Positions 6,186-13,704 of a stretch of DNA of 17,879 nucleotides are shown piece by piece. The notes under the pieces were generated by a model. It ran no database searches, was not told where the DNA came from, and was given only the letters and a program-made list of their open reading frames with translations. This stretch comes from Promethearchaeota archaeon (GTDB lineage: Archaea; Asgardarchaeota; Lokiarchaeia; Sigyniarchaeales; SOKP01): positions 1 to 17,879 of the forward strand of contig RDOA01000063.1 in the NCBI GenBank assembly GCA_011364925.1, in the 5' to 3' direction. The first letter of the stretch is position 1. The number at the start of each line of letters is the position of its first letter. A program made the translations under genes and the position numbers.

Positions 6186-6569
6186 TTAGAAGATGTAGCA
6201 AAGTGTCATGCCTCCAATATGCTTTTCCTCCGCCTCTTTGAGAGTCATAATACCTTGATTTGTCGTAAGTACAATTATTCCTAAACCAGGCGCGGGAAGC
6301 AGCCTTCTTTCAAGCGATTCAAATTGAGATTCATTATAATTAAGCCTCATTAAACCAGCACAATGGTTAATTTTTCCTAACAATGCAATTTTAAATTTTC
6401 CTTGCCTCCCATCGTCATATCTCTCAAATTCACCAATATAGGCGTATTGTTGGAAAATACGAAGCACCCTTTGGTTTAATTTTGAAGCTGGACTGACAAT
6501 CACTTCTTTTTTCCTTGCTTTTTCTGCGTTTTTAAGGTCATTACACATATCAGCCAGTGTATTTGTTAT
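6186..6569 (-). CDS. rps8: 30S ribosomal protein uS8 (127 aa), probable non-canonical ATA start
   Basis: Conserved N-terminal helix TNTLADMCNDLKNAE extends above the ORF-track ATG to ATA at 6567-6569; GYIGEFE-type motif, DDGRQG, TTNQGIMT; SD GAGGTG at 6576-6581. Confidence 0.93.
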   Translation of the reverse strand: MTNTLADMCNDLKNAEKARKKEVIVSPASKLNQRVLRIFQQYAYIGEFERYDDGRQGKFKIALLGKINHCAGLMRLNYNESQFESLERRLLPAPGLGIIVLTTNQGIMTLKEAEEKHIGGMTLCYIF

Positions 6570-6597
6570 TTTTTACACCTCATTTCTAATTTCAATA

Positions 6598-6744
6598 TTA
6601 ATCGTATCTATAAAATCCAATTTCTTTTCCTATTTCGTAGAAACAACGACGACATATATATAAACCATATCTCCTTATTAAACCTCTATGAGTATGACAT
6701 CGTCTACATTCTCTTTGACCTTTACCAATTTTACCTTGAGGCAT
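6598..6744 (-). CDS. rps14: 30S ribosomal protein uS14, zinc-binding type (48 aa; absent from the ORF track)
   Basis: Manual translation MPQGKIGKGQRECRRCHTHRGLIRRYGLYICRRCFYEIGKEIGFYRYD; CxxC...CxxC; expected position between uL5 and uS8. Confidence 0.97.
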   Translation of the reverse strand: MPQGKIGKGQRECRRCHTHRGLIRRYGLYICRRCFYEIGKEIGFYRYD

Positions 6745-6769
6745 TCTTATCAATCTTCTTGCTAAATAA

Positions 6770-11274: not shown

Positions 11275-11808
11275 TTATTTTAATGGAACATATTTACTTG
11301 ACCGTGTGGCTCCAATTCCTGGTGAACCATGTTGAACATGTCTTCTAGTTAATGAAAATTCTCCTAAATAATGTGCAATCATCTCAGGTTTAACATCTAC
11401 AGTTTCATAGGATTTTCCATTGTATATTCCGATTTTTAAGCCCACCATTTCGGGAAAAATCAGCATATCCCTAACGTGGGTTCTAGTAAGAATATCTTTA
11501 CCTCTTTTCTTAGCTCTATATGCCCTTCTTAGTCTTTCGAGTAGTTTTTTCTGTCTGGGAGGCAGACCTCTTTTTAAGGATCTCCTTGCTCGTGCTGGAA
11601 GTAATTGGATAAATTCGTCCATGCTCATTTTTTTGAGTTCTTCCAAAGTGTATCCGCGATAGTGAAATTTAAGCCGATCTCTCTCTTTTTCTAAATCTAA
11701 TTCCCCTCTTTCTGCTTCTTCTTCGAGTTCTTCTGGAAATTCTTCTTCTAAGTCTTCCTCTTCGATTTCTTCTTGTTCTTCATTATCTTGTTCTTCATTC
11801 GGAGGCAT
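11275..11808 (-). CDS. rps19: 30S ribosomal protein uS19 with ~45-aa acidic N-terminal extension
   Basis: [43 protein letters not shown]. Confidence 0.97.
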
Positions 11809-11935
11809 ATTTCCACCAATCTATTTGTTCCATTTACTATATTTTGTTTATTTTTTACGCTTTTATTTACACGTGTAATGAATTTAGTTATCTATAGAAT
11901 TTTAATTTTATTAAAACAAGAGAACTAAAAACCAA

Positions 11936-12717: not shown

Positions 12718-13704
12718 TTACTGATATTCTATTGTGTGATTCGCATTATAATCATTGAAACGATCCTCAATTTCACTACGATACGGCATTGAAGCTTGAG
12801 CTCCTTGTCTTGTAATAGCTATGGAGGCCGCTGCAGTAGCGTATATTACCGAAGTGAGTAATTCTTCTCCTTGGCATATTTTACTAGCTAAAACTCCATT
12901 GAAGCAATCTCCTGCACCGACAGTATCAACAGCTGGTATTTCAAAAGCAGGAACTTTTGTAATGCTATCTGTTATCGCATCGTATATAACACAACCTTTT
13001 TTACCAAGCGTAGTTATTATGGTCTTTACTCCTAAATGTGATATATGCTTTGAAGCTTGGATTATTTTTTCATTATCATTTCCTTTTAAATTTTTAAATT
13101 TTAAAAGCGAATGTAATTGTATTAATTCGCCCTCGTTGGGAATTATAATGTCAATTTTACTTAGAATTGAAGGACTAATTGGTTTTAAAGGGGCTGGATT
13201 AAGAATTTTTACGACATTTCCTTGTGAAGCAATCTTATAAATTTCTTCAATAGTCTCAATAGGAATCTCCATTTGAACTACTAAGCATTTAGCATTTCTA
13301 ATGATTTCAGATCTATCGCGAACCTCTTCAGGAGATAACTTAAAATTGGCGCCAGGTGCTACACTAATCATGTTCTCACCTTTCTCGTCGATTAAAATAA
13401 AAGCCACACCGCTTGATTCTAGGGGATCCCTAATAACATACTCTATATTTACCCCTTCCTTGTTTAATTGAGAGACCATATCGTTTCCAAATGTATCCAT
13501 TCCAATCTTCCCAATAAAAATTGTATTAGACCCAGATCTCACGGAGGCTACCGCTTGGTTCGCACCTTTACCTCCCAAGAATTGCCTAAAAACTCCTCCT
13601 GTTACGGTTTCACCTGGTTTTGGGAACCGTCGTGAGTAAATATTCAAATCCATATTACTAGAACCGATAATAAGGGTATAAGGGTCGGGAAGTGGTGTAC
13701 TCAT
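12718..13704 (-). CDS. rbsK: Ribokinase (PfkB family)
   Basis: GSSNMDL, PKPGETV, GGKGANQAVA, LNPAP, PNEGE, DTVGAGDCFNG. Confidence 0.95.
   Translation of the reverse strand: MSTPLPDPYTLIIGSSNMDLNIYSRRFPKPGETVTGGVFRQFLGGKGANQAVASVRSGSNTIFIGKIGMDTFGNDMVSQLNKEGVNIEYVIRDPLESSGVAFILIDEKGENMISVAPGANFKLSPEEVRDRSEIIRNAKCLVVQMEIPIETIEEIYKIASQGNVVKILNPAPLKPISPSILSKIDIIIPNEGELIQLHSLLKFKNLKGNDNEKIIQASKHISHLGVKTIITTLGKKGCVIYDAITDSITKVPAFEIPAVDTVGAGDCFNGVLASKICQGEELLTSVIYATAAASIAITRQGAQASMPYRSEIEDRFNDYNANHTIEYQ

Follow-up and report, generated by a model that had tools for sequence, protein, structure and literature searches.

Probable translation initiation at an ATA codon in the ribosomal protein uS8 gene of a Promethearchaeota lineage

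The start codons accepted for archaeal genes in textbooks, in gene finders and in model archaea are ATG, GTG and TTG only. The uS8 gene in the stretch of Promethearchaeota DNA analysed here raises the question of where, and by what means, translation of a ribosomal protein begins when none of these codons stands at its conserved N-terminus. The window, i.e., the whole 17.9-kb contig (C75; 17,879 nucleotides), belongs to a genome of 3.9 Mb with 32% G+C, and carries on its minus strand a cluster that, judged from the translations, has the order S19-L22-S3-L29-Rpp29-S17-L14-L24-S4e-L5-S14-S8-L6-L32e-L19e-L18-S5-L30-L15. The uS8 gene is located between uS14 and uL6, which is its position in the archaeal ribosomal protein cluster. 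The upstream gene, uS14 of the zinc-finger type (6598–6744, minus strand, with ATG at 6744 or TTG at 6753 as start candidates), ends with a TAA at 6600–6598, 28 nt before the ATA codon of uS8 discussed below; it scores under the Pfam cutoff against PF00253, but lies at the expected place in the cluster.

At the S14–S8 junction, the minus strand reads ATGAGGTG-TAAAAA-ATA-ACA-AAT-ACA-CTG-GCT-GAT-ATG, with an in-frame TAA two codons above the ATA, exactly as a preliminary description of the locus had it. The Shine–Dalgarno (SD) hexamer GAGGTG (6576–6581) is followed by a 6-nt spacer, TAAAAA (6570–6575), of which the first three bases form the TAA (6575–6573) that closes the uS8 frame upstream, and the last three are AAA (6572–6570); the run of A at the spacer comprises six bases (6574–6569). 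The ATA (6567–6569) is the sole near-cognate codon at SD distance. It is followed by codons 2–7 (ACA AAT ACA CTG GCT GAT, 6549–6566), which encode the conserved TNTLAD segment at the start of helix 1 and are omitted by gene callers, and by the first ATG of the frame (6546–6548), which is the start used in automatic gene calls and would encode Met8 of the protein proposed here. A scan of the uS8 frame revealed no ATG, GTG or TTG between the in-frame TAA and this ATG. We consider it highly likely that translation of uS8 begins at ATA 6569–6567 by SD-led near-cognate initiation, in which case the gene would occupy positions 6186–6569 of the minus strand (127 codons and a TAA stop). This start, which the preliminary description had put forward, is supported by the lack of an earlier canonical start, by a suitably spaced SD that is complementary to the 16S tail of the genome, by homology of the codon to the canonical starts of relatives, by its conservation in a clade with two reversions, and by coding-type variation in the codons ahead of the first ATG.

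With the ATA as start, the protein would have the N-terminus typical of uS8. The Pfam profile PF00410 (Ribosomal_S8) matches with 84.7 bits against a cutoff of 24, over profile positions 2–126 of 126, and the alignment begins at residue 5 of the stop-to-stop frame, a Thr of TNTLAD, which is placed at profile position 2. The best PDB matches are archaeal 30S S8 chains (E about 1e-31), and the solved archaeal uS8 chains of 129–130 residues align over residues 4–127, i.e., from the same Thr as in the Pfam alignment. The Leu-Ala-Asp segment of helix 1 is found in every solved archaeal and eukaryotic uS8 that was aligned, with Leu-Ala-Asn as its counterpart in Pyrococcus, and the reading of TNTLAD as the conserved uS8 N-terminus in the preliminary description is thereby borne out. 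Relatives with canonical starts have a uS8 of 127 residues, and several hundred such proteins in the protein collection begin with MTNTL or MVNTL. The public gene call for the window and for near relatives is a protein of 120 residues with the N-terminus MCNDL or MCNNL, one example being the NCBI record from Promethearchaeota Loki_b31. Very probably, these public calls drop seven conserved residues, giving 120 instead of 127.

The nucleotide variation in codons 2–7 among the 18 members of the clade that contains the window's gene consists of third-position changes (A/G, T/C, G/A/T, and T/C/G) and synonymous CTN/TTA changes of the Leu codon, the remainder being one shared Thr/Ala change and two singletons. 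Neither indels nor stops occur in these codons in any of the 18 members, in contrast to the region from the S14 stop up to the SD, which has indels. Judged from this pattern, the seven codons ahead of the first ATG evolve as coding sequence, which is difficult to reconcile with a start at ATG 6548 as annotated, where the product would have 120 residues, and what precedes it would be seven untranslated codons left over from a lost ATG. We regard that alternative as improbable, even though it is the one adopted in public gene calls, and even though Met8, found throughout the clade as well as in L022, a relative with an ATG start, is older than the ATA and could have softened the switch of start codon. 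No SD is found near ATG 6548, as the end of GAGGTG lies 27 nt upstream, and it is the distance from the SD to the ATA that is conserved. A start at the first ATG would also remove the Leu-Ala-Asp of helix 1, and would set the protein apart from hundreds of relatives with 127 residues.

Initiation at the ATA is consistent with the ribosome-binding site. The 16S rRNA 3′ end of the genome is GGATCACCTCCT, and GAGGTG pairs with this tail over 6 nt; if the preceding AT (6583–6582) is included, ATGAGGTG matches the extended SD AGGAGGTG at 7 of 8 positions. The ATA is located 6 nt after GGTG, inside the range of 5–8 nt where canonical starts peak genome-wide. The genome-wide mode is slightly longer, 7–8 nt from GGTG, and the 6-nt distance of uS8 is also seen with ATG. 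The same ATGAGGTG is present ahead of six other genes in the genome, which have ATG, TTG or ATT starts.

For comparison with relatives, S8 loci were gathered from 40 genomes of the same genus and order and from 54 further records, and the start region was read in 60 distinct family-level S8 sequences of related Promethearchaeota. The codon homologous to the ATA is ATG in 27 of these, TTG and ATA in 15 each, and GTG in two. In a tree of S8 coding DNA, the ATA species fall in one clade of 18, the sister of which has an ATG start, and two lineages nested in the clade (L073, and L006/L065) are back to ATG. As read from this tree, the history of the uS8 ATA is one of a single origin followed by two reversions to ATG. 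GAGGTG is kept in 15 of 15 ATA species, and the revertant lineages each carry one base change that weakens the SD (GAGGTA and GAGGAG, respectively). In each of the 15 ATA species the SD match extends over 6 nt at its longest, compared with a mean of 4.5 in ATG-start and 5.2 in TTG-start species. The pattern would fit with SD strength being traded against start-codon strength in uS8, where one clade and two reversions amount to few independent events. The distance from the SD to the ATA is conserved among relatives, in which the spacer reads TAGAAA, TAGAAG or TAAAAAA as variants of the TAAAAA in the window, and the layout given in the preliminary description is shared by 15 separately assembled species, so that it is not due to chance.

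In the mechanism that we propose, the 16S tail CACCUCCU would pair with GAGGUG and set the P site 6 nt downstream, on the AUA, where the initiator Met-tRNA (anticodon CAU) would pair with the first two bases and a C–A mismatch would be tolerated at the third. The weak AUA codon would be offset by the strong SD. The product is expected to start with Met-Thr-Asn-Thr-Leu-Ala-Asp, Met being the presumed first residue, and to comprise 127 residues; the predicted N-terminal peptide is (M)TNTLADMCNDLK, compared with (M)CNDLK for a start at the first ATG. A second, shorter uS8 isoform could arise from the in-frame ATG that all clade members have seven codons further on.

The preliminary description also pointed to an out-of-frame micro-ORF, ATG AGG TGT AAA AAA TAA (MRCKK*; 6566–6583, minus strand, with the ATG at 6583–6581), and this is present as described, with its stop overlapping the ATA of uS8 as ATAA. 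The two-base overlap is similar to the ATGA/TAATG type of stop-start coupling; different from that type, the upstream frame is no gene but a stretch of only five codons that begins within the SD, and such frames show no enrichment at starts of this kind. If the micro-ORF were a coupling device, MRCKK would be translated, and reinitiation after termination on the UAA that overlaps the AUA would make the weak codon usable. An ATAA/ATAG (or ATGA) overlap in 16 of the 18 clade members would agree with this, as would the T of the micro-ORF ATG, which is kept in 18 of 18 members, though G would pair better with the 16S tail. The micro-ORF is retained in 14 of 15 ATA species, but the geometry is lost in L010, where it is fused in frame with S8, and in L073, where it has nine codons. 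Its stop arises automatically when ATA is followed by a codon that begins with A or G. In this genome, such a micro-ORF accompanies 1 of 69 SD-led ATA, ATT or ATC starts, namely that of uS8 itself, compared with 4 of 124 SD-led canonical starts, and an ATG within 24 nt upstream is found at 30% of the starts in both the near-cognate and the canonical class. Also against coupling, ATGAGGTG stands ahead of six other genes, and the SD would be occupied by any ribosome translating the micro-ORF. Because the ATG is part of the extended SD, the stop is automatic, the geometry is not maintained in L010 and L073, and the frequency is that of the background, the micro-ORF is judged incidental: it looks like a by-product, and the coupling suggested in the preliminary description, left unsupported by these comparisons, is in our view quite unlikely.

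A start at the upstream ATG 6583 combined with a −1 shift on the A-run, or with an A added by the polymerase, would give MRCKKITNTLAD..., a reading that the preliminary description had listed and that we consider very unlikely. The upstream ATG is indeed conserved in 18 of 18 clade members, but it lies within the SD and is not itself preceded by one, and the ATG-start relatives L006 and L073 share it and need no shift. The spacers TAGAAG (L007) and TAGAAA (L008 and L067) contain no slippery run, and six A is short for transcriptional slippage. A consensus fold of eight species gives −2.45 kcal/mol without covariation, i.e., no regulatory hairpin or frameshift stimulator was found at the S14–S8 junction, and the combination of a conserved slippery run and a stimulatory structure typical of programmed −1 frameshifting is missing there. 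One relative, L010 (identical to L109; G016:C73, JAHLWS010000073.1), has an ATA start and seven A in the spacer, which puts the SD-embedded ATG in frame with S8 in an open frame of 138 residues. This natural variant could be taken in favour of slippage; however, the spacer has here changed by one base without loss of the gene, which fits an SD spacer and not a frameshift site, and together with the TAGAAG spacer of L007 it rules out −1 slippage at the A-run.

The possibility that a TATA-like element, TTTATAGA, located about 27 nt ahead of the upstream ATG, acts as an internal promoter and gives rise to a leaderless transcript of the micro-ORF was rejected. The element encodes part of S14 (F-Y-R), and among close relatives its spacing from the ATG varies by 5–6 nt, which argues against a promoter role.

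Initiation at near-cognate codons does not appear to be confined to uS8. A census of this genome was restricted to open frames of 100 codons or more, and to codons in them that precede the first canonical start and are followed by six codons free of canonical starts. ATT, ATA or ATC is found at SD distance in 56 of 3076 cases, compared with 17 of 6503 for the control codons AAA, AAT, TTA, TAT and TTT (odds ratio 7.1, p=5e-15), and the near-cognate rate of 1.8% is similar to that of canonical first starts, 2.2%. ATT and ATA peak 7–8 nt after GGTG, the same as ATG, TTG and GTG. A count of the codons after each GGTG made without these conditions was dominated by in-frame GGTG inside genes, and was discarded. 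Many of the candidates expose known N-termini, e.g., the P-loops of small GTPases, a universal stress protein, and a uS4-like MGDPRR motif behind ATC. On the basis of the census, near-cognate initiation at ATA, ATT and ATC is a genome-wide habit that would involve dozens of genes.

A second example in the window is uL15, which has no canonical start. Here, GGTGA (2816–2812, minus strand) is followed after 6 nt (7 from GGTG) by an ATA (2805–2803) that aligns with the ATG of ATG ACG AGA AAA TTT in relatives; the three closest species (G024, G013, and G014) have ATT in this place, and use of the first in-frame ATG would cost 46 conserved residues. Homopolymer runs are error-prone and ATA encodes Met in some organelles, but a sequencing or assembly error at uS8 (a true ATG, or A7) or a reassignment of ATA to methionine has a negligible probability, since the same ATA and spacer recur through the divergence of at least 15 species from separate assembly projects, which excludes an assembly error and with it the one-base error in the A-run considered in the preliminary description, and since ATT and ATC are used likewise as starts and an internal Ile codon of uL15 alternates between ATA and ATT, which indicates near-cognate initiation and not reassignment.

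A uS4-like N-terminus (IGDPRRLKKKFKKPKHPF) follows AAGGTGATGCAAA-ATC in another contig of the genome (G000:C112, minus strand, about 98.7 kb from the far contig end in reverse-complement coordinates). The frame has no canonical start for 22 codons, and its identity as uS4 was recognised by eye; it would represent an ATC start in another ribosomal protein gene.

The initiator tRNA gene, located by its anticodon-arm pattern, is present in the genome and has a standard CAU anticodon arm, GGGCTCATAACCC. ARAGORN, run on the whole genome with or without intron search, reported no tRNA with a CAT anticodon, and 11–14 tRNA genes in all; the Rfam tRNA model identifies 24. Most tRNA genes of the genome are probably interrupted. 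The initiator gene (C44, minus strand, near 13375 in reverse-complement coordinates) seems to have additional sequence, possibly an intron, behind the anticodon arm.

Among the genes with a near-cognate start is that for the initiation factor aIF1 (SUI1; G000:C86:10199-10534, plus strand; L117/L118). Its frame opens four codons ahead of an ATT, and both its zinc knuckle and its SUI1 domain are encoded before any ATG, GTG or TTG. Across 17 genomes of the same genus, neither this ATT nor the GGTTGTGA in front of it varies; elsewhere in the order, the start codon is ATA in two other genera, and TTG, GTG or ATG in others. Judged from this arrangement, aIF1 likely starts at the ATT behind GGTTGTGA. 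Bacterial infC starts with AUU in E. coli and with AUA in S. aureus, and is thought to be autoregulated (PMC13009471); the ATT of aIF1 is a parallel to this by analogy only. The tolerance of near-cognate codons may reflect a lineage-wide relaxation of start-codon stringency tied to aIF1, whose own gene would start at ATT. A further step, which we offer tentatively and regard as rather doubtful, would be that stringency is regulated in the genus, such that aIF1 senses its own level as IF3 does, and that the strong-SD near-cognate genes (uS8, uL15, and probably uS4) follow. The conserved AUG embedded in the SD of uS8 could add a second regulatory layer.

SD-led initiation at AUA and AUU is already established in bacteria. 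In S. aureus, AUA or AUU starts are found behind extended SD motifs in four genes per genome (infC, ccpN and citZ with AUA, and cvfC1 with AUU), with a measured output of about 10–30% of that of AUG (PMC13009471). Similar to the case described here, an SD of unusual length positions a conserved AUA or AUU start, the gene for a proofreading factor uses such a codon, and a swap to AUG is possible. The systems differ in that the bacterial one employs IF3 and fMet-tRNA, whereas the present one is archaeal (aIF1, aIF1A, and aIF2) and would extend to dozens of genes including those for ribosomal proteins. E. coli infC and pcnB have AUU starts, and initiation has been measured from all 64 codons (PMC13009471 refs 73–75; PMC4705826; bioRxiv 10.1101/063800). 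The shared features are tolerance of a third-position mismatch to the initiator anticodon and use of a weak start as an expression setting or autoregulatory sensor, and the difference is that such starts are rare exceptions in E. coli.

For archaea, the literature searched contained no systematic account of ATA, ATT or ATC starts, in Asgard or in other lineages, and yielded only two related reports. An ATT start was proposed for the tubulin gene AtubA of a Heimdall-group Asgard archaeon in a methods-section remark that calls it rare (PMC13394414). As for uS8, this is an Asgard gene for which the deposited protein lacks a conserved N-terminal strand that is restored by an upstream near-cognate codon, in that case ATT, at ribosome-binding-site distance; it differs in being a single gene, considered without comparative or genome-wide analysis. 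In ribosome profiling of Haloferax volcanii, about 30% of the putative alternative initiation sites are near-cognate, and these were set aside as possible false positives (PMC7261190). Unlike the start of uS8, these are alternative sites and not the sole start of essential genes.

What is new here is the involvement of an essential ribosomal protein, the single origin and two reversions with matching SD changes, and the truncated public records. The uS8 gene would have kept its ATA while at least 15 species diverged, and the habit also appears to touch aIF1, the start-codon proofreading factor; we know of no ribosomal protein gene among the near-cognate starts of E. coli. With one origin, two reversions and matching SD changes, the uS8 clade would constitute a natural experiment on the trade-off between SD and start codon in a eukaryote-like initiation machinery. 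The truncated public proteins of the clade affect alignments, phylogenies and structure work on Asgard proteins.

Two further observations concern the coding regions. In four species of the same genus, L022 (G004:C109), L024 (G023:C35), L025 (G015:C26) and L023 (G003:C147), the only S8 gene found is broken near codon 48 by a 29-nt insert that shifts the frame and brings stops. The insert forms a perfect hairpin of 8–9 bp (fold z −2.6 to −3.5), the stem of which is preserved by compensatory changes between L022 and L025; that of L023 is an unrelated 29-nt hairpin, located 6 nt further upstream in S8. These may be mini-introns in a protein-coding gene or small palindromic insertions, and a search of the genome to which the window belongs revealed no such insert. 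In the window, uS19 (11275–11820, minus strand) has an acidic, Glu/Asp-rich N-terminal extension of about 45 residues ahead of the conserved domain.
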